DNA of 64,000 nt, taken from assembly GCF_000027125.1 (NCBI RefSeq), contig NC_017626.1, one strand, 5' to 3'. Under the pieces are notes generated by a model. That model did not search any database. It saw only the letters and a list, made by a program, of their open reading frames with translations, and had not been told where the DNA came from. The translations under genes and the position numbers were made by a program. How positions within the stretch are numbered: the stretch's first letter is position 1; each line of letters opens with the position of its first letter. Of the stretch, positions 27,016 to 55,748 are shown in pieces. The stretch comes from Escherichia coli 042 (GTDB lineage: Bacteria > Pseudomonadota > Gammaproteobacteria > Enterobacterales > Enterobacteriaceae).

Positions 27016-27025
27016 GTTGCGGACT

Positions 27026-27184: not shown

Positions 27185-27197
27185 AAAACTGCAAAGA

Positions 27198-31295: not shown

Positions 31296-32531
31296 TTACA
31301 TTTCGAATGTTTTTTTAGGACGCATCTTTTTTATCATAAAAAAGCTGCAGAGAAGTAATATGAAACTAATACACTCTACAAGCAGAATCGTCATAGCAGC
31401 ACCTTTAACACCGTACTTCATTATTAAGAAATACATAGTTGGTATCGATGTCAAAATGCAAACATACGAAACATACAAACCCACTTTATAAAACCCCTGT
31501 GACTGAATTATTGCAGTTGTACCACCATTGATACATTTCACACATGCAACAATCAAGAACATCATTATCAAGAAATCATTATTAACATTAGAAATCAATA
31601 CAAAATGACCCAGGTATTTTATTATAAAGAAATAAACTAATGAACTCAGCACGCCATATGCCACAATACATAACAGGAACTGAAACACCTTAGTAAAAGC
31701 ATTTTTTTCTTGTAAGTTAATTCGGCAAAATCTTGCATAGGCAACTGTAGAAAATACAGAAGAAACCATAACCAGTGGATCAACCATCCTAAATATCTGG
31801 CCATATGCTGCAAGATCCCCTGGGGCAAATGTCTTGAGATAAAAATTATCTATACGGCTATAAATAATTACAACAACAGCTGTAAGACCTATACTTAATG
31901 TATATTTATATAAAGAAAGAATTGACATTAGCACATCAAAAGCTGACGTTCTAATAAACCTAAACTTGACACTAACGAATAGTTTTAGTGTAACCAGCGA
32001 TACGAATAATAGTTCAACACACAGGTAATCCCATGCGTTAAATTTAACGTTTAAAAAATACTGAATAGCGAAGATCGTACACGTTGCAATAGATGCAATT
32101 GCGATCGGAACCGTGAGAGATTTATTGGAATTGAGAGATTGAAAATAGCTATTTGAGAAATTAAAAAATAAAGCAACAGGTAAGGCTAACACAATAGGAA
32201 TATAGACATTATATTGATAACCCTGAACAAAAGAATACAAACAAAACAGTAGTAAAACAATTACTCCAGAAAGAATTTTTTGTGCAAACGTTACATTTAA
32301 TAGTTTTATTTTATCTGTAGAATCATTATATTTTTTTATAACAAACAGATCCACACCAAAATCAGTAACCACCCGAAGGACTTCGAGAAAACCAACTAAA
32401 AAAATGAACTCTCCGCCTACATCTTCTCCTAAGGAACGAGTAATCAGAATTATTGCAAGTGTTTTAAAACCGAAGTAACATATTTTATTAAATAGCGAAA
32501 AAATGCCATCGGAGAAAATTTCTTTGATCAT
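31296..32531 (-). CDS. wzx: Candidate O-antigen flippase Wzx, 411 aa
   Basis: AT-rich multi-pass membrane protein; N-terminal pattern ...TLAIILITRSLGEDVGGEF typical of Wzx; last gene of the cluster before gnd. Confidence 0.6.
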   Translation of the reverse strand: MIKEIFSDGIFSLFNKICYFGFKTLAIILITRSLGEDVGGEFIFLVGFLEVLRVVTDFGVDLFVIKKYNDSTDKIKLLNVTFAQKILSGVIVLLLFCLYSFVQGYQYNVYIPIVLALPVALFFNFSNSYFQSLNSNKSLTVPIAIASIATCTIFAIQYFLNVKFNAWDYLCVELLFVSLVTLKLFVSVKFRFIRTSAFDVLMSILSLYKYTLSIGLTAVVVIIYSRIDNFYLKTFAPGDLAAYGQIFRMVDPLVMVSSVFSTVAYARFCRINLQEKNAFTKVFQFLLCIVAYGVLSSLVYFFIIKYLGHFVLISNVNNDFLIMMFLIVACVKCINGGTTAIIQSQGFYKVGLYVSYVCILTSIPTMYFLIMKYGVKGAAMTILLVECISFILLLCSFFMIKKMRPKKTFEM

Positions 32532-32572
32532 GTCATGCCTACTGGTGAGATCCTGGTCGAAAAATAAACCAC

Positions 32573-33904
32573 TTACTGACCATGATAAATTTTATTTTTA
32601 ACAAGTAATGGAGATATAAGAACAATCGGCAATGATTTTAGAAGAAAAGCCAATGGCAAAATCAGTTCACCACGAACAGCATAAAAAAATCCAGATATCA
32701 TGGAGATGGCAACAAAGTTTATTATTATCCGTTGATTATTTAGTCCCCATTTAATAAAAAGCATCACCCCTGATAAATACAGTAAATAAATAATCACTCC
32801 CAAGTTTAGACTCAGCAACGATGACTCTAACAATCCTGAAGATGACAACGCAATACCAGAGGATACATCACCTAAAACAATTATTGAAAAATCTTTTGCG
32901 ATTTGTTGATCATCAAGAAAACCAAGACCGCTTAGCGGTAATACTTGTGTGAATACCACAGCGGGATGAAGTTGATCCCATCCTGATGATTGCATATCAA
33001 ACAAATTCTGCATCCCCCCAAGAGTAGAGGATAGCGAATCTAAAACAATGCCAATATAAATCATAAAATCGATTTGGTACCCTTCACGGAAATACGATAC
33101 CATCGAGAAGCATAAAAAACCGGCGATGAGAAATATTGGTTTTGAGAGTTGCTTAAATAAATTTCTTACTCTATACTCATTAGAGTACATATATAGTATA
33201 AAAATACAAATCACTGAAAAGAAAAACTTATTACGTATTCCAATAGCTAAATCAGATGCAAGTAAAACAAATGCAATAACTTTAATGTAGGTCGGTGTTT
33301 TAAAATAAAAAGTGGACAATGACATTACAACTGCAAAACCACTAATAGCACGAATAAAAAATGGAACTTGGGATAGCAATTCTTCGCTTTCAGTATAAAT
33401 TGCTAAATGCCCTTCTCCTGAATTCAATATAAACATAAGATAAATTAATATTTTGTATAATTGACACAGTGCAACAATAGAAAACAAAATATAAAATAAA
33501 CTAGTTAAATATCTTTTTTCTTCTTTTATGACAGTCTCTGTTGTTTGCAAGTAAAGGATGGAATTGATCAACATCCCCCAGATACAAATTATTTCAAACC
33601 CATGATTTGCGTTTTTAAAATAGTAAAGATAAATCGATGGCAAACCAATAATCAAAGAAAAAACGAATGCAAAAAGTAAGGTTAGTGATAAATAGCGAAC
33701 TCTATTAATATAATAATAGAACATCAAAACAACTAATAGCGCTGTAGATATAGTGGCTAAAATATCAATATACACTTGCGATACAAATGTATCCGCCCCT
33801 CCCCACAAGAAACATGAGGATAGTGAAAGAAATACAGAAAAATATATAGCCAGATGTTTAAACTGTATTTTATTGCACAATAATGAATAATATTGCTTAT
33901 GCAT
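32573..33904 (-). CDS. wzy: Candidate O-antigen polymerase Wzy, 443 aa
   Basis: Very AT-rich, highly hydrophobic multi-pass protein with no soluble domains; adjacent to wzx. Confidence 0.5.
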   Translation of the reverse strand: MHKQYYSLLCNKIQFKHLAIYFSVFLSLSSCFLWGGADTFVSQVYIDILATISTALLVVLMFYYYINRVRYLSLTLLFAFVFSLIIGLPSIYLYYFKNANHGFEIICIWGMLINSILYLQTTETVIKEEKRYLTSLFYILFSIVALCQLYKILIYLMFILNSGEGHLAIYTESEELLSQVPFFIRAISGFAVVMSLSTFYFKTPTYIKVIAFVLLASDLAIGIRNKFFFSVICIFILYMYSNEYRVRNLFKQLSKPIFLIAGFLCFSMVSYFREGYQIDFMIYIGIVLDSLSSTLGGMQNLFDMQSSGWDQLHPAVVFTQVLPLSGLGFLDDQQIAKDFSIIVLGDVSSGIALSSSGLLESSLLSLNLGVIIYLLYLSGVMLFIKWGLNNQRIIINFVAISMISGFFYAVRGELILPLAFLLKSLPIVLISPLLVKNKIYHGQ

Positions 33905-34087
33905 AGTAATTAGCTTTACTAGTGAAGTAACTCATTTGAAAAATAAGAAACAGTTAATTTTACAATCTCTTATTCGGGATGAACGCAAATAAAAACACCA
34001 ATGCTAAATATAAACAATTTATAAACAATCTATTACTGAGCGGTTAAATGACAAACCGCTCAAGAGTAGAAAAAAGTTTATATTTTT

Positions 34088-35509
34088 TTACAAAAGAGTA
34101 ACTTTATGCAAAACTTCTAACACTAATTTTTCAGCTTTTATTATGTTATCTGCTTCTGCATAGCATCGCAATTCAGGTGCGTTGCCTGACGGTCGCAAAT
34201 GGATTATTGAACCATCACTTAGTGTCAATCTTAACCCGTCAATTGTATCCACCGATTGTACATGAAGATCGACAAAGCCTATTCTTTCGATAAATTCTTG
34301 AGGATTTTCTTGAGCTGACGCGATAATGCTTTTGCTTTTGCTTGTTGCAAAATTTTGAACTCTATTTGAGTAGGTAAATCGTGGTGGCAACTCCGCCAAG
34401 AGTTTTGAAATAGTCACATTATTTTTTATAGCCAGTGCCAGTACCATTAAAGCAGGCAAAACAGCATCTCTTGTTGGAAGCGCTTTAATCATACCGCTGT
34501 TATAATTTACATCGCTACCTAAAAGATACCCACCGTTAGCCTCAAACCCTGCAACCCTATCAAAACTATTATTCAGAGAATCAAACGCTGAAATGACGTA
34601 TGGTGAACCAATTTTAGTCAGCGTTACATGATTAAACCACCCGCAAGTCTGAATAACCGTATTACAACTTACAGGTACAGCTACCGCTTCAATATTCATT
34701 GCCTTTGAGCAAAATAGTCCTAATATATCACCCCGTAACCAAACGCCATTTTCGTCAGCAACCAAAGGACGATCGCCATCACCATCGGTAGAAAAAATCA
34801 TATCGAGGTCATACTCAGATGACCAGTGTAAAGCTTTTTCTTCATCTTCTTTTGATACTGCTTCAGTATCAATAGGCACAAACTCATCACTTCTACCAAT
34901 ACTTACAACTTCAGCACCAAGCTTACTGAATATTTCTGAATAAAGATCCCGTCCCGCACTTGAATGTTCATAAATCCCGATACGTTTACCTTTAAATATA
35001 TTTGAAAAAATTGAAGTGTTTCTCTCGATATAAGTATCAGCGGCACGCTTTGAACATTGTAATTCTGGCAATACAGTTACATCAGGATACTCTTTTTCAG
35101 CATGTATAATGCTGTTCTCATTTTCTTTTGAAATTTCCCCGTCTGGACGATAGAATTTCAAACCATTTCTATCAAATGGAATATGACTTCCAGTAACCAT
35201 TATTGCAGGAATCCCATCGGCAATCGCTTGATTTGCCAAAGCTGGAGTTGGAATTACACCGTAGTAAATAGGTTTAATACTACATTCCAACAATGCTGCT
35301 GCGCAAGCTTGTGCCATAGCATAGCTGCTTGGGCGATTATCTATTGCGAGCGCAACCTCTTTAAAAGAAAAATCCTTCATCATTACATCGATAAAAGCAT
35401 AAGTGAATGCAGCACACACGTTGGGTGTAAAATCTTTCACTAATCCACGAGCACCACTTGTACCAAATGCAATTCCGCTATTTTTAATTACATCATTGGT
35501 AATATTCAT
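34088..35509 (-). CDS. manB: Phosphohexomutase, ManB-like (start at M13 of the ORF preferred, 5 nt after the manC stop; the ORF could extend to 35545)
   Basis: Phosphoserine-loop motif [11 protein letters not shown] (variant of TASHNP); tightly coupled to manC; GAGGA upstream of ATG 35509. Confidence 0.65.
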
Positions 35510-35513
35510 ATAA

Positions 35514-36929
35514 TTATTTATCCTCAACACGACCATATTTATCACTTAGGCGCACAATATCATCATCACCTAGATATACACCCGACTGAATCTCAATTAC
35601 TTCTAATGGTATCTTTCCTGGATTTTCCAAGGTATGAACTGTGCCAATTGGTATGAAAGTTGACTCATTTTCAGTGACGAAAAAAGTGCGTTCGCCGCAA
35701 GTCACCTTTGCAGTACCAGCGACAACCACCCAATGCTCAGCTCGATGATGATGCATTTGTGTTGAGAGACATTCACCAGGCTTAACGGTAATACGCTTTA
35801 CCTGATAACGGTCGCCACGTTCTACAGAATCATAACGTCCCCAAGGACGATAGACTTCGCGATGGGATATATGTTCGCTACGTTTTTGCTTTTTAAGAAT
35901 TTCGACAATCTTCTTTATGTCTTGTACGTTGTCTTGCTGTGCTACCAGGAGCGCATCTTTAGTTTGAACTATAATAAGGTTATTAACTCCTACAGTGCTG
36001 ATCAGTGAACCTTCAGAGTAAATGTAGTTGTTCCTGCTGTCATAGTTAATTACATCGCCATGCGATACGTTTTCATGTTCATCTTTCTCTGATATTTCCC
36101 AAAGTGATGTCCATGAACCGATGTCACTCCAGTCAGCATCAAGTGGAATAACTACACAATCCTGAGTTTTTTCCATTACCGCATAATCAATTGACTCATC
36201 GGGACATTCTGCAAAGACATCAGAATTTAATCTGATAAAATCTAGATCAGTACTAGCACTGGAAAGCGACTCTTTACACGCTGCTAAAATATCAGGGCGA
36301 AATTTTTTCAATTCATCTAAATATACGCTCGCCTTGAACATGAACATACCACTATTCCACAAATAGCATTTTTGTTCGAGATAATTTTTAGCCGTTTCTA
36401 AATCAGGTTTTTCGACGAAAGAATTTACTTTAAATACAGAGTTTTTAACTTGTTCGCCCTTTTTAATATAGCCATACCCAGTTTCAGGTTTGGTCGGGAC
36501 GATGCCAAAAGTCACTAACTTATTGTCAACGGACTCTTGTTCTGCAGCTAAAACAGCTGCATGGAAGGCTTCAATATCCTGAATAGCATGGTCAGCAGCA
36601 AGAACCAGCATATGATGATCGCCATGGAGTTCTAGAGACTTTAGAGCAGCCAGCGCAACGGCGGGCGCAGTATTTCTACCTACAGGTTCTAGAATAATCT
36701 GGAAGTCATCCACACCGAACTGTCGCAATTGTTCAGCAACAATAAATCTATGCTCATTATTGCTAACAATGACAGGAGGCAAACAATTTAATCCATCAAG
36801 TCTCTTCAACGTTTCCTGGAGCAAACTATTTTCATTAATCAATGATAAAAATTGTTTCGGGTATAACGAACGCGAAAGAGGCCATAAGCGAGTACCAGAA
36901 CCACCGGCCATAATAATTGGGATAATCAT
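35514..36929 (-). CDS. manC: Mannose-1-phosphate guanylyltransferase / mannose-6-phosphate isomerase, 471 aa
   Basis: N-terminus [28 protein letters not shown]; C-terminal cupin region; roughly 60 percent identical by eye to the cpsB product in the same window. Confidence 0.85.
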
Positions 36930-36930
36930 T

Positions 36931-38133
36931 TTATTTAACAGACTCCTTAATTTTCTGGATATATGGGCTCAATTTAGCTTCCCATGAAAAATTCTCACCG
37001 ATAAACTTTTTCGCAACTAATGCTGTTTCGGTATATTTATCCAGATTTGTTATAAAATAATTTAATACACGTAAATATTCTTCTTTTGTATTGGCAACAT
37101 AAATCTCCTTACCCTCCTCTGCTCCCAAGCCTTCAAAGCCTACAGTAGAAGAGATACAAGGTAATCCCAACGCCATATATTCAAGTACCTTATTTTGGAT
37201 ACCTGCCCCTAATCTAATAGGACATACACCAATATGCCCATCAGCTGCTGCATAAGTTATGCTATCAACTTCACCTGTGACAACAACGCCAGGCTGGCTT
37301 TCTAACCAACTCTTATCTTTATCTGTAATACGTCCGATGACCTTAAATTCAAAATTACCATGCTTGTTAAGAAATGGTAAAACTTCCTTGGTGAACCATC
37401 TCACACCATCCATATTTTGCAAAGAATATAAATTACCTATAAATACAAGGGTTATCTTTTTATCTTTAGCTATTTTTCGTTCTGAAAAAGGTAAGCTAAC
37501 GGCATCAACACCATTTCCACAGACTAATACATTATTCGGACGGTCTGGATATAAATAATCGGAGTCAACCTGTGATACCAAAGTAGTCAAGCTGAACTTG
37601 TTATTTATAGTTCGCTCATATCGTTCGAGTCTTTTTTGTTCAAAAGAATATACAAATGTTTTTAAACTCAATAAAGATGCTTTTTCCTTTACTCGTTTAT
37701 AATTAAGTGAAATGGCATCGGTCATCTCTAAAAAATTTATATCTTTATTCTCTTTCACATAATCACCAACCCTTATCAAATGTGAAAGAGTTGCAGAATG
37801 TTCAGGTAATAACTGCTTAAGTTTATCTTCAAATTCTTTAGATTTATAATACCCAATCTGTAGGGGAGTATTTGAAAACAAAGAGAATATGACATTTAAA
37901 ATAGATTTTTTCTTTGAAAGATATACTCTGTGAACACTACTAAAAACTTCACGATCATATTCATAGTTGAGCTCTTCGCGTTTATCACACAGACTCAGCA
38001 ACGTAAGATCATAATGCTTAGACAGTTCTTTACAGATCTTATAGATACGTAATCGATCCCCACCAATGACAGGAAACGGGAACCGTGGAGTCAAAACTAA
38101 TATCTGTTTCTTATTTATATCAATATTACTCAT
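36931..38133 (-). CDS. Glycosyltransferase, GT4 (family 1) type, 400 aa
   Basis: C-terminal motif [26 protein letters not shown] (E-x7-E-like); AT-rich. Confidence 0.75.
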
Positions 38134-39163
38134 AAATCTTTCTCAATTCATTTTCAAATAAAATATGTTCATGCAGAGCTTTCCTTTCGACACTGGGTGA
38201 ATTATCTACCAAGTATGAATAGACTTCATAATACTCAGAATAGTAAGTATAAAAGAAAATATTCGAATCCTTTTGTTCGCGGAAAGCAGAGATCCGTGTG
38301 CATATAACATTTTTGCATGTGAGTTTTGCTTCAGCTAAAGTCCTTCCATACCCCTCGGCAAGCGAATGAGCCCAAACAATTTTAGAATTACAATATAGTT
38401 TGACGACTTCCTCTAAAGAAACAAAACCAATAATTTCAATTTCTTTATCTGTATCCCGCCCATCAATTAAGTCGTTAACCTTGCTAATACCATTCCCACA
38501 ACCTAATATTTTTAATGGTATTCTTTCTTCCCTTGGGATTGAAAAATAATAGTCCAGAGCTGTGCCTAGATCCTTATTATCCCCTAAACCTGAAACTAGA
38601 AGTAAATATCCAAGATCTTTTATTTCGGTAACATTAGCAATTTTCTCAAATGAGAAAAATGGATTTGGGAGCAGGATAGATTCTATACACTTAAATAGCG
38701 ATATTCTCTTAGATACTCGCTGAGTGCTTTGAGAAATAAATATTACTTTCTTTGCTAAAAAAGATGAAAAATAAATACAGACTTTCACATAAATGGCAGC
38801 AAGATTTCGTTTATTTTTCTTAAGACTAATGAAGTCATGAATTATAACAATTGCCTTACCTAATAACAAGTCAATGATGGAACTACTATTATAGGGATAT
38901 ATATTATACTTAGTTCTATAAAATATACCCATAATTGGTATTAAAAGCTGCTCTACTATTATAAAAAGAACATTCAGAAACCATGAAGGCAGCTTATGGA
39001 ATGCTTTTGGACATGCAACATAAATAACCTGAACATTATTGTCTCTTAACTTTTGCACAAGTTCAGAAGTATAGATCGGTATTCCTCTTTTCAAAATACC
39101 ATCAAAAAAATTATTTACAATTACTTTCATGTTTGCTCTTAAGTTTATTTCAGATATTATCAA
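38126..39163 (-). CDS. Glycosyltransferase, GT4-like, 345 aa; first gene of the O-antigen operon
   Basis: C-terminal SLAEGYGRTLAEAKLTCKNVI motif; overlaps the downstream glycosyltransferase by 8 nt. Confidence 0.65.
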   Translation of the reverse strand: MIISEINLRANMKVIVNNFFDGILKRGIPIYTSELVQKLRDNNVQVIYVACPKAFHKLPSWFLNVLFIIVEQLLIPIMGIFYRTKYNIYPYNSSSIIDLLLGKAIVIIHDFISLKKNKRNLAAIYVKVCIYFSSFLAKKVIFISQSTQRVSKRISLFKCIESILLPNPFFSFEKIANVTEIKDLGYLLLVSGLGDNKDLGTALDYYFSIPREERIPLKILGCGNGISKVNDLIDGRDTDKEIEIIGFVSLEEVVKLYCNSKIVWAHSLAEGYGRTLAEAKLTCKNVICTRISAFREQKDSNIFFYTYYSEYYEVYSYLVDNSPSVERKALHEHILFENELRKIYE

Positions 39164-39229
39164 TAGTATAAAAATAGTCAGGATTATTATTTCTTATTTT
39201 GAGAACGCATCATATAAACACAATCTTAC

Positions 39230-39268
39230 CACGCTACCGCCCCTGGCTTAACAGCTACCAGTGCACTA
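39230..39268 (-). promoter_or_regulatory. JUMPstart element with ops (GGCGGTAGCGTG on the transcribed strand) in the O-antigen operon leader
   Basis: Plus strand cacgctaccgcccctggcttaacagctaccagtgcacta; ops reverse complement at 39230-39241; near-identical copy upstream of wza. Confidence 0.7.
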
Positions 39269-39523
39269 GCAAAATGCCAAAGATGTACCCCGCCCCGCTA
39301 GCTATCGCAAAGCTATCTTAAATTCAAACGCCAATTGTCTTACCAAATGCTGTCAGAAACAAGGATAAATCCAACAAAAAATAGATTAAACTTAGTAGGT
39401 TAACTCGTTGTTATTCTTTGTTTTAAAAAGAAAAACGACAGTAACATTCCTTTGTTTAAAGCATAGACGCCGGGATGTTAGCTGCCGCTATTTATCTAAA
39501 TTATTGTTACATTGGCTTGGGAT

Positions 39524-40417
39524 CTATTCCCCGAGCAACTTCTCAATGCTCTTACGGAACTTTGGCCCTTCCTTCAGGTTGCGCAGTCCATACTTCACAA
39601 ACGCCTGCATATAGCCCATTTTTTTACCGCAGTCGTAGCTGTCGCCGGTCATCAGCATGGCATCAACGGACTGTTTTTTCGCCAGTTCGGCAATAGCATC
39701 AGTCAGCTGAATACGCCCCCATGCACCAGGTTGCGTGCGTTCAAGTTCCGGCCAAATATCGGCAGAAAGCACATAGCGACCAACGGCCATGATGTCTGAG
39801 TCCAGCGTCTGCGGCTGATCCGGTTTTTCGATAAATTCGACGATGCGGCTGACTTTACCTTCACGATCCAGTGGTTCTTTGGTCTGAATGACGGAGTATT
39901 CAGAGAGGTCACCCGGCATACGTTTTGCCAGCACCTGGCTGCGGCCCGTTTCGTTGAAGCGCGCAATCATGGCAGCAAGGTTATAGCGTAGCGGATCGGC
40001 GCTGGCGTCATCGATAACAACGTCTGGCAGTACCACGACAAATGGGTTGTCACCAATGGCAGGTCGTGCACATAAAATGGAGTGGCCCAAACCTAAAGGT
40101 TCGCCCTGACGCACGTTCATAATGGTCACGCCCGGCGGACAGATGGACTGCACTTCCGCCAGTAGTTGACGCTTCACGCGCTGTTCAAGGAGAGATTCTA
40201 ATTCATAAGAGGTGTCGAAGTGGTTTTCGACCGCGTTCTTGGACGCGTGAGTTACCAGGAGGATTTCTTTGATCCCTGCAGCCACAATCTCGTCAACAAT
40301 GTACTGAATCATTGGCTTGTCGACGATCGGTAGCATCTCTTTGGGAATCGCCTTAGTGGCAGGCAACATATGCATCCCAAGACCCGCTACAGGAATAACT
40401 GCTTTTAAATTCGTCAT
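39524..40417 (-). CDS. galF: UTP-glucose-1-phosphate uridylyltransferase paralogue GalF, 297 aa
   Basis: Start set at [14 protein letters not shown]; position between the O-antigen and colanic acid clusters. Confidence 0.9.
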
Positions 40418-40591: not shown

Positions 40592-41986
40592 CTACTCTCT
40601 CCGTTCTGGCAATCTAAAGTTAATCTTTTCCACATTAACAATATGGTGATTAACCCTGTCGATATCGACGGAGCTTTGCCCTCTTTCATTCACCGCATGA
40701 ACATTTGCAAGAGACAGCAGTGTTTCTTTTTTCGCCATAAAGACGCCGCGAACGTCTTTGCGCATGTCGAAGTTCATGCTCAATGCGGGTCCAACAGAGG
40801 ATTCCTGCATCACTTTGATATTTCGTATAAAAAGATGTTGCGGTTTGTTGTGTAACTCCAACGAGGCACGCTTCATCTCAATGTTAGTCAGTGCAACAAA
40901 GGAGACAGCATTCCCGGCAGAGATTTGGATACCGCGCAATTTGTAAGCAAGGTGGGTGTTATCCAGCTGAATATTATTCACTCGGAAATTTTGCGGTATC
41001 GAGAGATATTTGCCTTTAATTACCCCATAACCGATTAACATCCCGGCGCTATTAATCATTTCAATATTATCAATCACGAAATTGTCACAACCGTAAATAG
41101 CGACCGTGGCGTTATCAATACCTGCTTTCTTACTGAAATCCGGCGTGATATTGCGGGCTTTGATATTACGAATAACAAAATGTTTACCATTTTCAACATG
41201 GATCAGTTGTCGACAATCCGATCCCGTGATATTCGCCACGACAAAGTTTTTCACTGCCTGGTCTTCCGGGTAGTTATTATCATAAGTACTCCCCGCAAGG
41301 CCTATGCCGATTCCCCAGTTGATTTTGCCGTTGGTACAGTTGATGCGCTCGATGATGTGGTCGGAGATCAAAATATCACTGTCGTTAATCGCCACGTTCC
41401 ATTCAATGGCGTCCCCCTGTAAGTCGCTGAACTTACAATTGGTGATGTTGGCACCGATAATCTGGTTATGAAATCCCTGACGTAAGATGGCGTAATTAGC
41501 GTGGCTGACAGTGAGGTTATCGATGGTCAGGTTGCGCATGACCCGTTTGTTTTTGCCGCCGATATAAATCTGCGTTACTGGGCCAAAGCCGCTCATCGCC
41601 AGCCCTTTGATGGTGCAGTCAGAGCCGCGCACATCCAGGGTGATGTTATGCATACTGCCGCCCTCCTCCCCTGTCACCTGGCTGCCGTCTTGTAAGACAA
41701 AACGCCCTCTGCCGTTGCCGCGCAGGCTTCCAAGGATGTGTAACGTTTTGCCAGGAGGAATGAAGATGCCGGTGTTGATATTTTCACAAACCAATCCGGC
41801 AGGCACGACGACCGTTTGCCCTTCGCTGAAGGCTTGTTTAAATGAAGCAATCCAGTCGTGTGGGTTGTAGTCGTTAATGTTAACGCTTTGCCGGGCAGGA
41901 AGTGCTCGGGCGAAAGGCGTATGAAGGAAGGCAAGCGCCGAGCTTACCGTCAGGAAAGTGCGTCGGGAGAGTTTTTTAAATGGCAT
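40592..41986 (-). CDS. wcaM: Colanic acid biosynthesis protein WcaM, 464 aa
   Basis: Length identical to K-12; Tat-like signal (SRRTFL); last gene of the cluster. Confidence 0.9.
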
Positions 41987-41996
41987 ACGTTCTCCT

Positions 41997-43217
41997 CTAT
42001 AAAGCTTGCAGCAAGCTGGCGAGTTCTCGATTAATCACCTGCTGGTTAAAATCATGTTCGACTTTTTCGCGCGCACGTTTGATAACCGGAGCCAGTTCGT
42101 CGGTGTCCAGTTGGCTAAACGCCGCCAGTCGTTGCGCCAGTGCACGGGCATCGTTCTCAGGCACCAGCCAGCCGGATTTGTCAGCCTCCACCAGTTCCGG
42201 TATTCCGCTATGCAGAGTAGAAACCACCGGAATGCCGACCGCCATCGCTTCCATTAGCGCCACCGGAATGCCTTCCATATCACCATCCGCACCTGTAACC
42301 GATGGCAACAGGAAGACATCCGCGTCGTCGAGCATCGCTTTCACTTCGTGGCTCGGTTTAAAGCCCGGCATCTCCACCACATCTTCCAGTTGATATTGTT
42401 CGATGAGGGTGCGCAGGCGTCGTTCCCACGGGCCAATGCCGAGGATGCGATAGCGAAATGCCACGCCCTGCTCTTTCAACTGACGGCAGGATTCGATCGC
42501 CACATGCAGGCCTTTTTTCTCGGTTAAGCGTGCGACGGAGATGATTTCCAGCGGTATTGCGGGCGCTTTCACCGGACGCGGGCTAAAACGCGTCATGTCC
42601 ACGCCCATGCGCGATACGGCAATTTTTTCCCTCGGGCAGCCCATTTTTTGCAGCCTTCCGGCCCAGAGATCGCTGATCGGTAGCATCAAATCGCCACGGC
42701 GAAACAGTTGCTGATATTCGGGGGTGTAGTGGTTGAGCACTTCCCGACTGGAGATATCAATGCCGTGGAAGATAGTAGCGATTTTGCCGCGAATGACACC
42801 CAGTTCCCGTAGTTTTGCTGCGGTTACCCCCGCCGGGCCAAAATGAGCGATGAACACATCGGCATAAAATGGTGTTGCGACCTGGCCGCAAATGGCAGAC
42901 AAAATCAGGTTCCGCGACTCGGCACCATAGCGTTTGAGGTTGAGCGCCTGCCAGGTATTTTTGCGATGAATGCCGCGTAAGGTCTGGCTGGCGCGGTGGC
43001 GCAGCTTCGCCACTTTGCCCGTAGGTTCGTCCTGTAACCAGCGGGTTCTGGCGGCAAGGTTGTATTTCGTCCATGCCGCGTGGGTGTTTTGTGTGTCGCC
43101 TTTTTGCAGCGCGACAATCTCCACCTCAAATCCCATATCAATAAACGCAGTGATTTGGTTGAGAACGAAGGTTTCCGACGACAGCGGAAATTTCAGTAAA
43201 AAGAAGCCGACCTTCAT
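41997..43217 (-). CDS. wcaL: Colanic acid glycosyltransferase WcaL, 406 aa
   Basis: Length and order as in K-12. Confidence 0.9.
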
Positions 43218-44494
43218 TTCACCTCCCCGATGCGTTCAAGCACAGATTGCACCATCTGCATTCCCGTCTGACGTTCGCGACTGACGGCTTCGTTAAGTCG
43301 CGCGTTCAGCGCCGGAAGTTGGCCTAAGGTATCCGCAACCATCGCTTGCAGGCTGCCGTCCAGTAAATGACGGATATCAATTGCCATCTCTGGCAGCCCC
43401 AGCTGCTGCATAATCCCGGCGGATTTATGTTCATAGTTGATGGCAATCGCCGGAGTGGCAAAGTTCATCGAGATAATGGCTGAGTGCAGGCGCGTACCGA
43501 CGGTGAGTTCACTGGCACCGAGAATTTTGCCCATTTCCAGATCATTGAGTTCATCCATCACTACGTGGTAACGGGCAGGATCGCAGATGTGCTGGCGCAG
43601 ATTGAGCGCCACCATGCGGTCGTCTTTGTTATAGCTGTCGATGCCCGTACAGGTGGAGAGCGCAATGACCTGATAGCCTTCGTCGAGAATGCGATTGACC
43701 ACCCCGGCAAAGGCTTTTTCATACGCTTGTTGGGTGGTGCCGAGACGTTTGTCGAACGGTGCCAGTTCGCGCAGGGTAATTGCCACCGTTTTCTGTTGTG
43801 CGGCAACGTCCAGCCAGTGTTGAACGGCATAGCTGGCGGTGAAGTCTTCTGTGTGGTGATCGACCAGCCACGCGGTATCGACGCCATGTTCAACTTTTGC
43901 AGTGGAGATATTGCTGCGTTTCATCAAATCAAGGCTGACCGATTCGCGCAGGATCAGCGCATCGCAGTGACCAAAAACGTAGTTCGCCAGTTGGTTAAAT
44001 TGCTCATCCTGGAAGGGGCCGACGCTGTGACCAATCATAAACAGCGGCTTTTTCGCCATAAATGTGCAAAGCGCATGTTCAAACTGTGGCACGCCGTAGA
44101 GATCGACAAAAAACGATCCGCCGACCTGAATAATGGCGTCGTAACCTGACAGCAGGCGCACGAAGTCAGTGAATCCCTGGGCGATGGCGATATTACGCAA
44201 CTTGCCAGTGTCGGTGACGCGTGAGAGCAATACCTGATGCTGGTAGCGGCGACGGAGGACTTTTTTAACGCGCCCGACAACGCCCGCCACGCTGTTGTGT
44301 TGTTTCATTTGCAGGAACAGTGGATCGCCCATTACCGGGCGGTTGAGCAGCCAGGAAGAACTGACCGGATAGCGGCTCATCACGTCCACTTCGGCATGTG
44401 GATTGAGGATGTTGATGGCATCAAGTAAGCCGCGCAGGATGGCGCTGTCGCCACGATTGCCGCAAGTGTGGTTGCCCAGAATAAGTAATTTCAT
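43214..44494 (-). CDS. wcaK: Colanic acid pyruvyl transferase WcaK, 426 aa
   Basis: Length and order as in K-12. Confidence 0.9.
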   Translation of the reverse strand: MKLLILGNHTCGNRGDSAILRGLLDAINILNPHAEVDVMSRYPVSSSWLLNRPVMGDPLFLQMKQHNSVAGVVGRVKKVLRRRYQHQVLLSRVTDTGKLRNIAIAQGFTDFVRLLSGYDAIIQVGGSFFVDLYGVPQFEHALCTFMAKKPLFMIGHSVGPFQDEQFNQLANYVFGHCDALILRESVSLDLMKRSNISTAKVEHGVDTAWLVDHHTEDFTASYAVQHWLDVAAQQKTVAITLRELAPFDKRLGTTQQAYEKAFAGVVNRILDEGYQVIALSTCTGIDSYNKDDRMVALNLRQHICDPARYHVVMDELNDLEMGKILGASELTVGTRLHSAIISMNFATPAIAINYEHKSAGIMQQLGLPEMAIDIRHLLDGSLQAMVADTLGQLPALNARLNEAVSRERQTGMQMVQSVLERIGEVK

Positions 44495-44555
44495 TTTTTC
44501 CTCATAAATTTGATGCCAGGTGAAGCTGCGTTTGTTTTGTTCGTTGCCGCTTTTT

Positions 44556-44742
44556 GCCTGATGCGACGCTGGCGCGTCTTATCAGGCCTACAAGACCCGA
44601 GCACAGAACCGTAGGCCGGATAAGGCGTTCACGCCGCATCCGGCATTCAGTGCCTGATGCGACGCTGACGCGTCTTATCAGGCCTACAGGTCCCGAGCAC
44701 AGAACCGTAGGACGGATAAGGCGTTTTACGCCGCATCCGGCA
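44556..44742. repeat. Tandem pair of BIME units (each a REP pair) between wcaK and wzxC
   Basis: gcctgatgcgacgctg[g/a]cgcgtcttatcaggcctaca...gtagg[c/a]cggataaggcgtt...cgccgcatccggca present twice, about 96 bp apart. Confidence 0.7.
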
Positions 44743-44769
44743 ACCATTGCCGGAACCGAAAACAACAAC

Positions 44770-46248
44770 TCACCCCGCCCGTAAAAGCATTTTCATTTTT
44801 TCGCTGCGACAAAACTGACGCTTCACTTCCACCACCAGCGGATGGCGCGACAGCACAATCATCACTACAAACGCCAGCACGCCTGCGGCTATTTGCACCG
44901 CCAGCAGCATCCCCAGCGCCAGTTGCCCTTTCAGCACAATGCCCAGCGCATAACTGACCACCAGCGTCGGCAGCGAGAGATAAAACGGCAGCCATAAACT
45001 CAGGATGTACTGGCGATAACTGGAACCGAGCACCGGTTTAATCATCACGAAGTAACTCAGAATGGTGTTGATAATCTGCACCAGCAGGAAGCCGAGCGTG
45101 ACGCCGATTGCGCCCGCCATTTGCCCACCTATAACAATCGCCGGAATAAACAGAAAGGTTTTGAATACGTTGAATTTAAAGCTGATATCGACCCGCGCTT
45201 TCGCCATCAGCAGCGAACCAATCGGGTTCCCCACTGAGCGCAGCAGCCCCACCACACACAGTAAATGCAGCACCGGAATAATGCTGTTCCACTTCTCACC
45301 AAAGACCAGCGGTACAAAGTTATTCGACACCACCATCAGCCCCAGCAGCGCCGGAAAGTTGATAATCCCCACCACCGACAGCAGCTTGTAGAAGTTGACG
45401 CGCAGCTTTTCGGTGTCGTCCTGAATTTTGGCAAATGCCGGAAACAACACGCGGGTGATGATCGGGTTCAGCTTCATCGGCGGCACAACGGCCACGTTGT
45501 ACGCCAGGTTGTATCCCCCTGCCACGCCCGCGCCAAGAATACGCGCCAGCACCAGCGTTGAAAGGTTGGTGTTGAGATAGTTGATGATGCTGTCCGCCGT
45601 CAGCCAGGCACCAAAACGTAAGTTCGGTGCTACCGACGCCAGCGAGAAGTGCAGACCGGGACGATAAATTTTGCGGCCAAAGTAGCCAAACAGCAGCGTT
45701 CTTACCGTACTATTGACCAGATAACCGAGGATCGCGGTCATCGCCAGCGGCCAGAAATGGGCGCTAACCACAGTAAAAGTGAAGCCCGCCAGCACCGCGC
45801 TGGTTTCGATCATGCCGATTTTGTTGAACTCCAGCTCCTTCTGCATCAACGCGCGGAACTGTTGCCCGTGGGGGATCACCACAAACGCCAGCGACAATGT
45901 TTTAATCAACGGTGCCAGGTCCGGGTTATTCAGCACGTCGCCGATGAGATCACTCAACAAAAACACCGCCACGCACACCACGATCCCCAGCCCGACGTTC
46001 AGCCAGTACAGCGTGGTGAGTTCAAGGTGGCTGATTTCTTTTCGCTGAATAATCGAGTTAGCGATACCGAAGTCAGAAAGCGTATCTGCCAGCGCGATAA
46101 TCACCAGCGACACAGTCAGCAGGCCGAACTGGTGGTTGTCGATAATCCGCGCCAGCACGGTCATCTGTACCAGCCCGAGGCCGATGATGATCACCGTGGC
46201 AATCGCCGACCACTTCGCGCCGCTGATGGTTTTTTCACGTAAGCTCAT
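44770..46248 (-). CDS. wzxC: Colanic acid repeat-unit flippase WzxC, 492 aa
   Basis: Length and order as in K-12; multi-pass membrane protein. Confidence 0.9.
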   Translation of the reverse strand: MSLREKTISGAKWSAIATVIIIGLGLVQMTVLARIIDNHQFGLLTVSLVIIALADTLSDFGIANSIIQRKEISHLELTTLYWLNVGLGIVVCVAVFLLSDLIGDVLNNPDLAPLIKTLSLAFVVIPHGQQFRALMQKELEFNKIGMIETSAVLAGFTFTVVSAHFWPLAMTAILGYLVNSTVRTLLFGYFGRKIYRPGLHFSLASVAPNLRFGAWLTADSIINYLNTNLSTLVLARILGAGVAGGYNLAYNVAVVPPMKLNPIITRVLFPAFAKIQDDTEKLRVNFYKLLSVVGIINFPALLGLMVVSNNFVPLVFGEKWNSIIPVLHLLCVVGLLRSVGNPIGSLLMAKARVDISFKFNVFKTFLFIPAIVIGGQMAGAIGVTLGFLLVQIINTILSYFVMIKPVLGSSYRQYILSLWLPFYLSLPTLVVSYALGIVLKGQLALGMLLAVQIAAGVLAFVVMIVLSRHPLVVEVKRQFCRSEKMKMLLRAG

Positions 46249-46249
46249 A

Positions 46250-47644
46250 TCAATATGCCGCTTTGTTAACGAAGCCTTTGAATACCGTCAGGAAAACGAT
46301 TTTGATATCGAACCAGACGCTCCATTCGCGGATGTACTCAAGGTCGAACTCGACGCGTTTTTCCATTTTCTCCAGCGTGTCGGTTTCGCCGCGCCAGCCA
46401 TTAATCTGCGCCCAGCCGGTAATGCCCGGTTTCACTTTATGGCGCAGCATGTAGCCTTCAATGAGCTGGCGATACTGTTCGTTATGCGCCACCGCGTGCG
46501 GACGTGGACCCACAATCGACATCCCCCCGGTCAGCACATTGATAAACTGCGGCAGTTCATCCAGCGAGGTGCGGCGCAGAAAGTTCCCCACTTTGGTGAC
46601 GCGCGGATCGTTCTGCGTCGCCTGGGTCACCACTTTGTCGTTCTCCATCACTTTCATGGAACGGAACTTCCACACTTTGATCGGCTTGCCATCCATGCCG
46701 TAGCGAGTCTGGCGGAAAATAACCGGCCCAGGTGAGCTCAGTTTCACCGCCAGCGCAATGCAGCACAGCACCGGGGAGATCAGCAGCAGGATAAGCGTCG
46801 CCAGCACAATGTCTTCCGCACGTTTGAGCAGGCGGTTAACCCCGGAAAGCGGCGTGTCGTAAAGCGGCACCACCGGAACGCCGTTCATCTCTTCAAGACG
46901 TGAATGAAGAATGTTGAAGGTAAAAACATCGGGGATCAGCAGCACCGAACAGGTGGTGTCCGCCAGTTGATGGACCAGTTTTTTCACTCGCGCGCCGTCG
47001 CACATCTGCATCGCGATATAGACGTTATGAATCTTGCCCGCTTTTGCATCCTCTACCAGCTGTTGCAGATTGCCCGCCCAGTCGTTAGAAACGCCGCCCG
47101 GTTTTGGGTCGTGGTATACGCCCACCACTTCAAACCCTAACCACGGCTGATTACGGAAGCTCTCCATCAGCATTTGTCCGGCGGCTAAATCCCCCGCCAC
47201 CGCGACCATCCGCTTGTTATAGCCATGATTACGCAGCCAGCCCGCCCCAATGCGAATACATGAACGGCAAACCACCAGTCCGATGCTGGTCAGCCCATAC
47301 AACGCCAGCCAGATTTTCAGTTGCGTGTCGAAATCATTGTTGAACGCCACCAGTCCGGCGCTGAAAATCACGCTTAAGGTCCAGTTTTGTAGCAACAGAG
47401 CAAATTCTGTCGCTGCCCGAACACCGCGCCATGAGCGATAAAAATCGGTGATGCCGCCCAGCATCTGGAACACCACCAGCGTAATCAGCGCCACCAACAG
47501 GTGCATGTAGAGGAATGACAGTCCGCTGACTTCGCAAACCAGCCATAGTCCGGCAAACATGATGGTGATATCTGAAAAGCGTTGCACCATAGAGATTAAC
47601 GATGCATTGGTTTTCGCTCGCTCGCGCTTTTTTAGATTTGTCAT
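46250..47644 (-). CDS. wcaJ: UDP-glucose:undecaprenyl-phosphate glucose-1-phosphate transferase WcaJ, 464 aa
   Basis: Length and order as in K-12. Confidence 0.9.
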   Translation of the reverse strand: MTNLKKRERAKTNASLISMVQRFSDITIMFAGLWLVCEVSGLSFLYMHLLVALITLVVFQMLGGITDFYRSWRGVRAATEFALLLQNWTLSVIFSAGLVAFNNDFDTQLKIWLALYGLTSIGLVVCRSCIRIGAGWLRNHGYNKRMVAVAGDLAAGQMLMESFRNQPWLGFEVVGVYHDPKPGGVSNDWAGNLQQLVEDAKAGKIHNVYIAMQMCDGARVKKLVHQLADTTCSVLLIPDVFTFNILHSRLEEMNGVPVVPLYDTPLSGVNRLLKRAEDIVLATLILLLISPVLCCIALAVKLSSPGPVIFRQTRYGMDGKPIKVWKFRSMKVMENDKVVTQATQNDPRVTKVGNFLRRTSLDELPQFINVLTGGMSIVGPRPHAVAHNEQYRQLIEGYMLRHKVKPGITGWAQINGWRGETDTLEKMEKRVEFDLEYIREWSVWFDIKIVFLTVFKGFVNKAAY

Positions 47645-47698
47645 CGTTGTTCCTGTTATTAGCCCCTTACCCGCAGTGGGGTAAGGGAAGATCCGACA

Positions 47699-49069
47699 TT
47701 ACTCGTTCAGCAACGTCAGCAGAGTTCGCGTTCTCGCTTCCATCAGCGGCACATCACCGCGTGATTCCACATTCAACCGCACCACCGGTTCGGTGTTGGA
47801 GGAGCGCAGGTTAAAGCGCCAGTCGGCAAAGGTCATACTGATGCCATCGGTGCGATCCACCGCCAGCGCCTCGCGGCTAAAATGCTGTTCCACGCGATTA
47901 ATTGCCTCAACGGGTTGCGCCAGTTTGCTGTTGATCTCACCGCTTGCCGGAAACGCTGCCATCCGGTCGCGCACCAGTTCGCCCAGCGTTTTCCCTTTCA
48001 GGCACACCAGTTCGGCGACCAGCAGCCACGGGATCATGCCGCTGTCGCAGTAGGCAAAATCACGGAAGTAATGGTGGGCGCTCATTTCGCCACCGTAGAT
48101 GGCGTCTTCCTTGCGCATCCGTTCTTTAATAAAGGCGTGTCCGGTTTTCGACATTACCGGGGTGCCGCCTGCGGCCGTCACCACATCAACGGTGTTCCAG
48201 GAGAGACGCGGATCGTGGATGATCTTCGCGCCGGGATTTTTTTCGAGGAACGCTTCTGCCAGCAGGCCGACAATGTAGTAGCCCTCGATAAACTGCCCTT
48301 TTTCGTCAAACAGAAAACAGCGGTCAAAATCGCCATCAAAGGCAATGCCCATATCCGCGCCGTGTTTGATGACCGCATTGCGGGTGTCGTCGCGGCATTC
48401 CGGCAGCAATGGATTAGGAATACCGTTGGGGAAATTGCCGTCCGGCGTGTTGTGTACTTTGATGAATTCCACCGGTGCGCCGAGGGCGTTAAAGCGGGCT
48501 TCGATGGCGTCCACCACCGGACCCGCCGCGCCGTTCCCGGAGTTAATCACCAGCTTGAGCGGCGTGAGGTTTTTGACGTTGATATAACCGAACAGGTGAT
48601 CAACGTAAGCGTCACGCAGATTGATTTGCTGATAGCGACCGCGTTTGGTTTCATCGACAGGAGGGAAGTCATTGGCTTCTGCCAGGCGCTGGACGTCGCG
48701 CAGTCCGGTATCACCGCTGATCGGGCGAGCCCCTTCGCGCACCAGCTTCATGCCGTTGTAATCCATCGGGTTATGGCTGGCGGTAACTTCGATGCCGCCA
48801 TCCACGCCGAGATGGAACGTGGCGAAATAAATCTCTTCGGTGCCGGACATGCCAATATCCAGCACATCGACGCCCGCATCCTGTAAACCTTTCGCCAGCG
48901 CCAGTTTTAAGGTTTCGCTGGTGAGGCGGACATCACCGCCTAACACAATAGTTTTCGGTTTGAGAAATTCGCCATAGGCGCGACCAATGCGCCAGGCAAT
49001 ATTTTCATTCAGTTCTTCGCCTAATTTCCCGCGAATATCATAGGCTTTAAAGCAGGTTAATTTTTTCAT
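47699..49069 (-). CDS. cpsG: Phosphomannomutase CpsG (ManB), 456 aa
   Basis: Start set at [14 protein letters not shown]; active-site loop TASHNP. Confidence 0.9.
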
Positions 49070-49170
49070 ATCGTTACCCTTTTTCAGGCAATAGTTGGCC
49101 CTGACCGAAACGGCCAATTTTGTTTTTGTCGTTATTTACCGGAGAATTAATCCGGTTGATTATTCAACTG

Positions 49171-50607
49171 CTACACCCGTCCGTAGCGATCCGCGAAGCG
49201 CACCACATCATCCTCTTCGAGGTAAGACCCGGAGCGCACTTCAATTAAATCGAGTGGAATTTTCCCCGGGTTTTCCAGGCAGTGCGTCGCCCCCAGCGGA
49301 ATATAAATCGACTCGTTTTCACCAAGCAGTTTGATATCACCGTCAATAGTGACTTTTGCCGTTCCTGCGACAACCACCCAGTGTTCCGCGCGGTGATGGT
49401 GCATCTGTACCGACAAACCCTCGCCCGGTTTCACGGTGATGCGTTTCACCTGGTAGCGGTCGCCCGCGTCGATAGAGTCATATTTGCCCCACGGGCGATA
49501 CACTTCGCGATGCACCCGATGCTCATGGCGACCGTCGGCTTTGATCTGCTCGACCACTTTTTTCACATCCTGCACCGCGTTACGGTCGGCAATCAGCACC
49601 GCATCTTTGGTCTGCACCACTACCAGATCTTTCACCCCGACGGTGGTGACCAGGCCAGATTCGGCGTACACATAGCTGTTTTCAGTTTTGTGATTAATCA
49701 CATCGCCGTGGCAAACGTTGCCCTCGGCGGTGTGGGCGCTGATCTCCCATAATGAAGACCAGGAACCGACATCGCTCCAGCCCGCATCCATCGGCACCAC
49801 AACGGCATCTGCCGTACGTTCCATGACCGCGTAATCCACAGACTCTTCCGGGCAGGCGAGAAACGCTTCTTCATCCACACGAATAAAATCGAGATCCGGA
49901 TCGACGGCGCTCATCGCTTTTTCACAGGCGTCGAGAATATCCGGGCGATATTTTTTCAGCTCTTCTAGATAGCGTCCGGCGCGGAACAGGAACATACCGC
50001 TGTTCCAGTAATATTCGCCGCTTGCCACATAGGCCTGAGCGGTTTCCAGATTCGGTTTTTCGACAAACTGCGCCACTTCAAAGGCCACCGTATCCTGCTC
50101 ACCCGCCGACACTTCACCGCGACGAATATAGCCATATCCGGTTTCAGGTAGATCCGGCACAATGCCGAAGGTCACCAGCTTGCCTGCTTCGGCATACGGC
50201 ATGGCGTTACGCACGGCGGCACGGAACGCGTCTTCGTCGGCAATCACATGATCCGCTGCCAGCACCAGCATTAATGGGTCGCTCTCCGGGCTATGACGTT
50301 TTGCCGCCAGCGCCGCCAGCGCAATGGCAGGTGCAGTGTTACGCCCTGCCGGTTCGAGAATAATGTTCTCGGTGAGTTTGTTCAGTTGACGCAGCTGTTC
50401 CGCGACAATAAAGCGGTGCTGCTCATTGCAAATCACCACCGGGCTTTCGCACTCCACGCCGTTCAGGCGGCAGATGGTGGTTTGCAGCATGGTGAGATCG
50501 CCTTTCAGGCATAAAAACTGCTTGGGGTAAAGTACGCGGGAAAGCGGCCATAAGCGGCTCCCGGAGCCACCTGCCATCACAACTGGATAGAGTTTCGACT
50601 GCGCCAT
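49171..50607 (-). CDS. cpsB: Mannose-1-phosphate guanylyltransferase CpsB (ManC), 478 aa
   Basis: N-terminus ...[18 protein letters not shown]; length as in K-12. Confidence 0.9.
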
Positions 50608-50609
50608 AA

Positions 50610-51833
50610 TTATCCCCGAATATCATTTATAAATTGACGTAACACGTTCTCTTTATCGAGCGTGCGTTCGGCATATTCACGTGCCACCGTGTTGTGTTTG
50701 GGCAGCAGGAGCGCCTGACGAATCCCCGCCACCAGCGCCTCGACCGATTCCGGTTCAACGCAAACCGCAATGCCCGGAAAGGTTTCGCAAAGGTGTCCCA
50801 GTTCGGTGTGAGCTTCTGCGGTAATCACCGCGTTGCCGCCTACCGCCAGAATATTGGTCAGTTTCGACGGCAATACGGCATCCGCCGCGCCGCGTTTTTG
50901 CACCACCAGATGGCAATCGCCCATCTTCAGCAGTGCGGGTAAAGCGTCATACGATTGCAGCGGGAAGAATTGCATGTTGCGCAGTCCACGCTGTTGCGCC
51001 ATTTTTTCCAGTCGCGCTTTGCCGCCGCCCTGCCCGACAATGGCAAAAATCAGCGGTTCATCACGCAGGCGTTCGGCAGCTTCAATAACGTTTTCCAGCC
51101 CCTGCTTTTCACCAATATTGCCGGAGTAAAGAATGATTTTTTTGTTATCCGGCAGGCCAAGCTGGTTACGAAGGGCATCAACATCGGCCTCTGCGACATG
51201 CTGAAAACGGGTAATTTCTGACCAGTTGGGGAAGAAGATGACGTTTTCTGCCGCCACGCCTTTTTCGATGGCTTTATTCATCATCGAACGCGAAATCGTG
51301 GAGACGTTATCGACGTTATGCAGTCCGCTACGTTCGAACGCCGTTGCCAGCTGTGCCACTTTGCCGCCTTTGCCTTTTCCGGCAAGGCCCAGCCCCAGCA
51401 TGGCGTCCACTTCGTAATCCTGAATATGCAGCACGGTACGCGCGCCAGAGAGTTTCGCCAGCAGGCGCATTCCCGGCGTGCAAAACAGCGTTGGCACTAC
51501 GCCGATAATGCGATCCGGCTTCCAGCGACGTTGCGCCATCAACGGGAAAAAACTGCTGGCGGCAAAACTGCCGAGATGCAACAGGCGTTTCAGGGTGCTC
51601 GGCTGTTTTGGCACGTACAGCGGGCAGCGCCACACCGTGGCGGCCCCCTCTTCTCGTTTGTACCGCCAGGCGGAATAGTTCTCGCCCACCTGCCATTGCG
51701 GGTAGTAAGGCGGTGCGGTAATAACCCGCACCTCATGACCTTGTGCCGCCAGCCATTCCACCATCTCTCCGGTGTATTTGCCGATACCGGTTAACTCCGG
51801 CGAGTAGTTAATGCCGTAGACCAGTATTTTCAT
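50610..51833 (-). CDS. wcaI: Colanic acid glycosyltransferase WcaI, 407 aa
   Basis: Length and order as in K-12. Confidence 0.9.
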
Positions 51834-52312
51834 AATCCGGGTACTCCGGCACGCTTCTCAGCGAGAAAATAGGCGCGGCTGTTAGCGTGAACATTGTCAC
51901 TGGCGAGCAGTGCATCCGGCGTCAGCCAGCGGTAATCGTCATGCTGCTCATCCGGCAGTAACAGCTCTTCTTCCGATACTCTGAAGCGAAAACCGAGCAC
52001 CACATAGTGAGTGGTGAAATCCGTGCCGGAGAAGTTATCGTCATAAAAGTGCTGCCAGACACCGTAAAACTGGCCTGCTGTTATCGGCAGACGCAGCCCC
52101 AGTTCCGCCATCGTCAGCCGCTCAAATGCGGCTTCCAGCGTTTCGTCTTTCTGCACGCGCCCTCCCGGCACAAACCAGTAACCCTGCGCCGGGCGGTTGG
52201 TTCTTTTGCCAAGCAGAAACTCGCCGCGACTGTTCTCGACAATAAAATCGAGAGAGACAAGCGGAGTGGAGCGCACTACCGTGGCAAAGTCTTCCTGACG
52301 TAAAAACATCAT
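51830..52312 (-). CDS. gmm: GDP-mannose mannosyl hydrolase (Nudix); start at 52312 or 52309
   Basis: Nudix-size ORF between fcl and wcaI; TAATG coupling with the fcl stop. Confidence 0.85.
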
Positions 52313-53277: not shown

Positions 53278-53279
53278 GC

Positions 53280-54401: not shown

Positions 54402-54427
54402 GTCTTATTCCTCTGTATTTTTTGAAT

Positions 54428-54976: not shown

Positions 54977-54991
54977 CGTTTTCCCTTATAT

Positions 54992-55738: not shown

Positions 55739-55748
55739 GTTCTTATTC

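Follow-up and report, generated by a model that had tools for sequence, protein, structure and literature searches.

The question raised by this locus is what two similar 39-nt sequences, carried on the minus strand of a 64-kb stretch of Escherichia coli 042 DNA (the whole of which is hereafter called the window), are doing ahead of the O-antigen and colanic acid operons. A first-pass annotation had picked them out as JUMPstart/ops elements, in which the ops site recruits RfaH for antitermination of long operons, and as stretches that could also serve as homology for recombination. The answer is a familiar one: the element is already known and occupies its textbook locations, a finding that is real but ordinary, and both copies display each of the defining features open to a test on sequence, i.e. 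model score, ops, strand, leader position, covarying stem and polysaccharide operon. According to the papers that cite the original work, JUMPstart has been described since 1994 (Hobbs and Reeves 1994) and its use by RfaH since the mid-1990s.

Two JUMPstart elements and the operons they precede

When the whole window was scanned with Rfam, both sites were matched by RF01707 ('JUMPstart RNA'), with 59.2 bits for 39230-39268 (E = 4.6e-11) and 57.3 bits for 63546-63584 (E = 1.6e-10), the gathering score of this family being 35 bits. In local re-scans both copies spanned the full model (positions 1-38), and they are thus JUMPstart elements by sequence and structure together.

39230..39268, minus strand: JUMPstart of the O-antigen operon leader, TAGTGCACTGGTAGCTGTTAAGCCAGGGGCGGTAGCGTG (read from 39268 to 39230), RF01707
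39230..39241, minus strand: ops site GGCGGTAGCGTG, exact match, non-template strand
63546..63584, minus strand: JUMPstart of the colanic acid (wza-wcaM) operon leader, CAGTGTATTGGTAGCTAAAAAGCCAGGGGCGGTAGCGTG (read from 63584 to 63546), RF01707
63546..63557, minus strand: ops site GGCGGTAGCGTG, exact match

The coordinates and strand first proposed are confirmed by both sequence and Rfam, and the consensus string that accompanied them is correct letter for letter. Calling the copies near-identical was an overstatement, since pairwise alignment finds 33 of the 39 positions identical (85%); the 3' 20 nt are exactly shared and contain a perfect ops 12-mer in each copy. Similarity ends abruptly on either side of the elements, their flanks being dissimilar. 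The copies have the same orientation, i.e. they are direct repeats, and their starts are 24,316 bp apart, in line with the spacing of 24 kb originally given.

Could such a pair have no function of its own, being a chance match or a generic repeat (a REP element, for instance)? The short length of the element is the only point in favour of this possibility, to which we give virtually no credence, because it is refuted by Rfam scores, shuffled sequences and cross-genus conservation alike. The Rfam E-values range from 1e-10 to 1e-13, the two ops are exact and in equivalent positions whereas shuffles lead one to expect 0.20 matches even when up to one mismatch is allowed, and the element is conserved among gamma-proteobacterial genera. 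Exact matches to GGCGGTAGCGTG in the window are confined to the two JUMPstart sites, and a relaxed pattern (GGCGGTAGNNTG, one mismatch) yielded extra matches that are intragenic and at background level only. No exact direct repeat in the 64 kb is longer than the shared 20-mer, which is equalled in length by two REP-element segments.

A gene map of the window was drawn from the ORF list and from the annotation of E. coli GF60, to which positions 38000-41000 are 100% identical (99.9% for many other strains). It begins with the his operon on the plus strand, followed on the minus strand by wzzB, ugd, gnd, wzx, wzy, manB, manC and two glycosyltransferase genes, and then by galF and the colanic acid genes from wcaM to wza; yegH lies just past the end of the window. 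Rfam also placed the sRNA STnc240 at 16998-17072 (minus strand, 68.2 bits) and the His operon leader at 19812-19935 (plus strand, 131.6 bits). The hisIE and wzzB ORFs are separated by 182 bp (27016-27197), lacking the IS621 (IS110-like) transposase found at this place in GF60 (L001, 8003-8983). A REP-like direct repeat of 30 nt (93% identical) is present at 27114-27143, after hisIE, and at 59574-59603, in the wzc/wcaA gap; it is a short dispersed repeat similar in size to the JUMPstart core. Two further features lie within the colanic acid operon: tandem repeats of REP/BIME type between wcaK and wzxC (44555-44760; Rfam naRNA4, 79.7 bits), of which GF60 apparently has one extra unit of ~96 bp, its downstream genes being offset by 96 bp, and an algC RNA motif (RF02929, 78.2 bits) in the cpsB/cpsG gap (49074-49123, minus strand).

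As first claimed, each JUMPstart precedes the first gene of a polysaccharide operon and lies on the transcribed strand, with ops 99 nt upstream of the glycosyltransferase ATG (39130) in one case and 178 nt upstream of the wza ATG (63367) in the other. The features of the O-antigen locus are as follows.

31296..39130, minus strand: O-antigen cluster (GT, GT4, manC, manB, wzy, wzx) of the O17/O44/O73/O77/O106 family
38126..39130, minus strand: first O-antigen gene (glycosyltransferase), from the RefSeq annotation of GF60 and the ORF list
39334..39362, minus strand: candidate O-antigen promoter, TTGTTT-17-GACAAT, a conserved spacer block
39524..40417, minus strand: galF, whose stop codon is 255 nt upstream of the O-antigen JUMPstart

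The O-antigen copy shows no substantial difference from the JUMPstart of E. coli and Salmonella rfb, with which it shares the 39-nt sequence, the stem-loop, the 3' ops and the location between galF and the first gene; it merely starts with T where the consensus has C. Copies from Superficieibacter, Enterobacter cloacae and E. asburiae are identical to it at 38 of 39 positions, the first base being the one that differs. Its conservation is such that it has served as a universal primer site in PCR amplification of O-antigen clusters (PMC3715488). When the window was compared with other E. coli serogroups, homology was found to end at 39230-39233 (query positions 431-434), which are the last bases of ops. 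A simple promoter scan of the O-antigen leader returned no site on the correct strand. An alignment of the galF-JUMPstart spacer from six genera revealed a conserved block at 39362-39334, ~60 nt upstream of JUMPstart and common to E. albertii, Enterobacter, Citrobacter and Pluralibacter; the TTGTTT-17-GACAAT within it reads like a weak promoter, probably that of the O-antigen genes. A G-rich block upstream of JUMPstart (GGGGCGGGGTAC, ~39283-39294) was considered as a second, degenerate ops and dropped because it is not conserved in other genera.

No difference was found between the colanic acid (cps) copy and the known cps/wca JUMPstart, which occupies the same position upstream of wza.

40592..63367, minus strand: colanic acid operon, wza to wcaM
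62228..63367, minus strand: wza, first colanic acid gene, its ATG (63367) 178 nt downstream of ops
63673..63700, minus strand: candidate cps promoter, TGGAGA-16-CATAAT, from a consensus scan

Its sequence type, with an AAAAA loop and TCTGGA straight after ops, matches that of another E. coli and resembles that of Citrobacter. The candidate cps promoter, a weak sigma-70-like site, lies ~80-90 nt upstream of JUMPstart, and no RcsAB box was found upstream of wza when TAAGAATATTCCTA was searched at up to three mismatches; a 10/14 match noticed by eye at ~63773, on the plus strand, is not put forward as one. Several other features of this leader deserve mention in their own right. Immediately upstream of JUMPstart, a stable hairpin (ACCCUUUCUCA...UGAGAGGGU, then UUUUAAAAAUU; 63590-63646, minus strand) resembles a terminator with a short U run, and a terminator scan gave no call for it; its pairing is kept through changed bases in a divergent E. 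coli, and it is absent in Citrobacter. Conservation among Escherichia, Citrobacter and Kluyvera is far higher in the wza 5' UTR (63368-63545, minus strand) than upstream of JUMPstart, with stretches such as CTGAATTATTCTGTCAATAGCCTGCGGATGAA and TTTTTTAGGACTGATGCCAGTTAAATT, which suggests that the leader may have more regulatory content. On the opposite strand, the 49-codon 'hypothetical protein' annotated in many RefSeq genomes at 63676-63825 (plus strand), antisense over the cps promoter region, is taken as an annotation artefact.

A covarying stem-loop next to ops

In the Rfam model, positions 8-12 pair with positions 21-25 to form a stem, which is followed by a single-stranded ops. All five pairs can form in both copies.

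39243..39261, minus strand: stem-loop CUGGU/GCCAG of the O-antigen copy, 5 bp (C-G, U-A, G-C, G-C, U-G), from the Rfam consensus structure and covariation
63559..63577, minus strand: stem-loop UUGGU/GCCAG of the cps copy, in which a C-to-U change makes the closing pair a U-G wobble

This change is the only difference between the two stems, while the loop of the cps copy is A-rich.

Other JUMPstart sequences were collected by scanning one genome per species with the pattern AGCT-N(8-11)-GGGCGGTAGCGTG, which returned at least 120 stretches. Among the matches listed, those with an upstream CAG[TC]-type motif were kept, giving 73 distinct sequences, or 75 with both window copies; this filter, which is independent of pairing, was preferred to pairing itself in order not to bias the covariation count. 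Since AGCT and GGGCGGTAGCGTG were fixed during collection, the corresponding columns are uninformative for covariation. The matches listed come from Enterobacterales, e.g. Escherichia, Citrobacter, Enterobacter, Kluyvera, Kosakonia, Pantoea, Erwinia, Serratia and Yersinia, and beyond this order from Aeromonas, Vibrio/Photobacterium, Shewanella, Idiomarina and Pseudoalteromonas. The listed matches from other phyla are a minority; most of them have neither the stem nor the upstream CAG[TC], and they were treated as chance. JUMPstart stands out as an island of conservation, with divergence setting in directly on both sides of it in the leaders of other genera.

In the alignment of 75 sequences, 94.4% of the stem cells are paired, against 77.6% after column shuffling and 22-61% when the partner is slid by one to three columns. 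Each of the five pairs shows double-sided changes (50 cells in total, against 13.6 expected), and none of 500 shuffles reached the covariation score. Variants among the matches listed include CUGGU/GCCAG, CAGGU/GCCUG, CGGGU/GCCCG, UUGGA/UCCAG, UUGGG/CCCAA and UUAGA/UCUAA, and the frequent G-U pairs are compatible with the sense strand only. Alignment gaps are confined to the loop, whose length varies, and in 73 of the 75 sequences a single base separates the stem from ops, which puts the end of the stem 12 nt from the pause at U11 and 10 nt from that at C9. JUMPstart therefore has a conserved stem-loop supported by covariation, which is not new and confirms the one reported by Weinberg et al. 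2010 (PMC2864571).

Folding energies offer no such support. The hairpin is weak (-5.7 kcal/mol in the O-antigen copy and -2.7 kcal/mol in the cps copy), and the cps hairpin is not the MFE fold of its full 39-mer. Against shuffles, the 39-mers show no gain in folding (z-scores of +0.38 and -0.03), so that a thermodynamic argument was rejected and support for the hairpin comes from covariation only. In the first 26 nt of nascent RNA, the hairpin is the best fold (MFE of -4.6 kcal/mol for the O-antigen copy).

Probable loading of RfaH and a possible role for the leader RNA

Ops is intact in both copies (12 of 12 positions), with every base that has been named for contact (C3, G4, G5, T6, A7 and G8) or for the pause (T11 and G12). 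Both copies are read in the sense direction, which places ops on the non-template strand as RfaH requires. Because all of the important bases are there, the interpretation first put forward is taken as right, and Rfam matches, gene context and published ChIP data support it: both sites are very probably JUMPstart/ops elements in the transcribed leaders of long polysaccharide operons, where they would load RfaH for antitermination. E. coli carries rfaH, and the gene lies outside the 64-kb window. Sequences, strand, position, family membership and the conserved stem-loop come from the present analysis, while RfaH binding and its mechanism, carried over from published orthologous sites, should apply here by analogy.

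At these orthologous sites, ops is a strong consensus pause (U11, G12), and the non-template strand of the paused complex folds into a small hairpin (C3:G8) that presents G4, G5, T6 and A7 to RfaH; the C3:G8 pair, G4, G5, A7 and G8 are needed for RfaH recruitment, after which the polymerase is modified (PMC5995543). In the window, polymerase would start upstream of the element, in the galF-JUMPstart gap for the O-antigen genes or upstream of 63584 for wza; ops is on the right strand with respect to both starts, whose positions we infer from candidate promoters (the conserved 39362-39334 block and the weak 63700-63673 site). It would pause on transcribing ops, and the exposed non-template strand would fold into the small hairpin recognised by RfaH, which would bind, leave its autoinhibited form and remain on the polymerase. 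There it would shut out NusG, suppress pausing and Rho-dependent termination, counter H-NS filaments and couple the polymerase to the ribosome. The expected outcome is that the distal genes are expressed in both the AT-rich O-antigen cluster (8 kb) and the colanic acid operon (23 kb). The G+C content is 30-39% in the O-antigen cluster and 52-56% in most of the colanic acid operon, and AT-richness is typical of RfaH targets silenced by H-NS (PMC9765446).

Binding has been mapped in CFT073, where ChIP-seq detected RfaH at eight ops sites in leaders, including those of wzx (O-antigen) and wza, and the signal was lost in an rfaH deletion (PMC9765446). At the wza ops, clear binding was seen only without H-NS and StpA, which silence wza-wcaM at initiation in rich medium, and the authors consider this a 'cryptic' target (PMC9765446). 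It may therefore be only after activation of the promoter by the Rcs system that RfaH control has any bearing on colanic acid. Another paper speaks of a 'JUMPStart-RfaH antitermination mechanism' in colanic acid transcription, citing Stout 1996 and Hobbs and Reeves 1994 (PMC9976346). The window copies share the ops 12-mer, its place in the leader and its non-template placement with other RfaH operons (waaQ/rfaQ, hly, kps and tra), which differ in their downstream genes and, through compensatory changes, in the sequence of the stem. Among the matches listed in the genome scan is a third E. coli JUMPstart type with a CAGGT/GCCTG stem, which we take to be the waaQ leader.

The stem-loop leads to another possibility, which would supplement loading of RfaH by ops and is not exclusive of it, namely that the element works also or mainly as RNA. 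The nascent stem-loop might influence the polymerase, either as a pause hairpin in the exit channel or by hindering backtracking at ops, or short leader transcripts bearing JUMPstart might bind RfaH as decoys. Overall, we regard an RNA role as doubtful. It would account for covariation at all five pairs with many sense-strand G-U wobbles, for the constancy of the distance between stem and pause (12 nt to U11, 10 nt to C9) in spite of a variable loop, and for the ready folding of the 26-nt nascent RNA into the hairpin, and the stem-loop itself was already part of the motif of Weinberg et al. 2010 (PMC2864571). However, the hairpin is weak, with 39-mers that fold like shuffles, the ops pause has been described as a backtracking (class II), hairpin-independent one, and contacts with non-template DNA alone account for RfaH recruitment (PMC5995543). 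Our literature search found no published test of the function of the JUMPstart hairpin. The spacing between stem and ops resembles that of an exit-channel pause hairpin of the kind known from his-type pauses. A precedent for the decoys is RirA, an sRNA from the waaQ 5' UTR that carries JUMPstart and ops with the same motif as the window copies and shows that a JUMPstart leader RNA is able to bind RfaH when RNA polymerase is present (PMC5736990); short stable transcripts from the two window leaders are only a candidate idea. That the stem-loop tunes the ops pause or limits backtracking for RfaH loading, or that the leaders release RirA-like RNAs titrating RfaH, seems to us quite unlikely.

The JUMPstart pair across genomes

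Citrobacter sp. R56, Kluyvera genomosp. 1 and Pluralibacter gergoviae each carry two direct JUMPstart copies ~24.1-24.2 kb apart on one contig. A wza leader resembling that of the window follows the upstream copy in the first two, and the Pluralibacter flank is unalignable. Since the paired arrangement recurs at ~24 kb in three other genera, it is old and stable. Each copy has its own loop and flank signatures, which are lineage-specific and kept in Escherichia and Citrobacter. A different arrangement was noticed in E. coli MB7671 (NZ_CP127848.1), where an O-antigen-type JUMPstart (L002, 8001-8037) lies upstream of wzi in a Klebsiella-type group 1 capsule locus (galF, PAP2 phosphatase, JUMPstart, wzi-wza-wzb-wzc-wcaJ), as described for group 1 capsule strains (PMC6128206). 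This locus replaces colanic acid and adjoins yegH with an IS remnant, and a frameshifted 'hypothetical protein' is annotated over the JUMPstart.

The direct orientation of the copies means that an exchange between them would delete wza-wcaM together with galF and bring the O-antigen genes under the cps promoter. That they serve as homology for such recombination, as the first-pass annotation had suggested, is very improbable. Besides orientation, the exact 20-bp core speaks for it, as does the position of JUMPstart at the very edge of the sequence common to serogroups, which means that the element can bound exchanges between strains. Yet exact identity extends over 20 bp only, short of the ~23-27 bp generally cited as the lower limit for RecA-dependent exchange to be efficient in E. 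coli. The predicted junction (a query made of the O-antigen leader, a hybrid JUMPstart and the cps promoter side) was covered at 80% or more in none of 5,426 complete E. coli genomes, a test that is informative only for the 93 genomes carrying the cluster because the O-antigen arm is serogroup-specific. Of the 4,832 genomes with any match to the kilobase upstream of wza (63000-64000), 4,816 have it intact; a JUMPstart-to-JUMPstart deletion would leave a characteristic partial match of 45%. The sole partial case sampled, E. coli KE51 (NZ_CP141080.1), has lost the region from wza to part of wcaL, replaced by an IS1 adjoining yegH, and retains wcaM, galF, the rfb genes and the O-antigen JUMPstart, so that this deletion was made by IS1 and not via JUMPstart. 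Finally, the copies differ in loop and flanks in Escherichia, Citrobacter, Kluyvera and Pluralibacter while their spacing stays at ~24 kb, which argues that they have been neither homogenised nor lost. The idea thus finds no support, and as a frequent event recombination between the copies is largely refuted. A longer stretch of homology was sought in manC and cpsB, whose 74-77% identity over 57-165 nt makes them no better a substrate.

Loading of RfaH in the leaders thus remains the preferred explanation, under which the two elements mark the regulatory heads of two surface-polysaccharide operons and bring no new biology. The O-antigen JUMPstart coincides exactly with the 5' boundary of the O-antigen region that varies between serogroups, and is useful as such for annotation. 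The point of interest left is the covarying stem-loop next to ops: if leaders of this kind did release RirA-like RNAs, these could titrate RfaH among the operons for O-antigen, colanic acid and core LPS.
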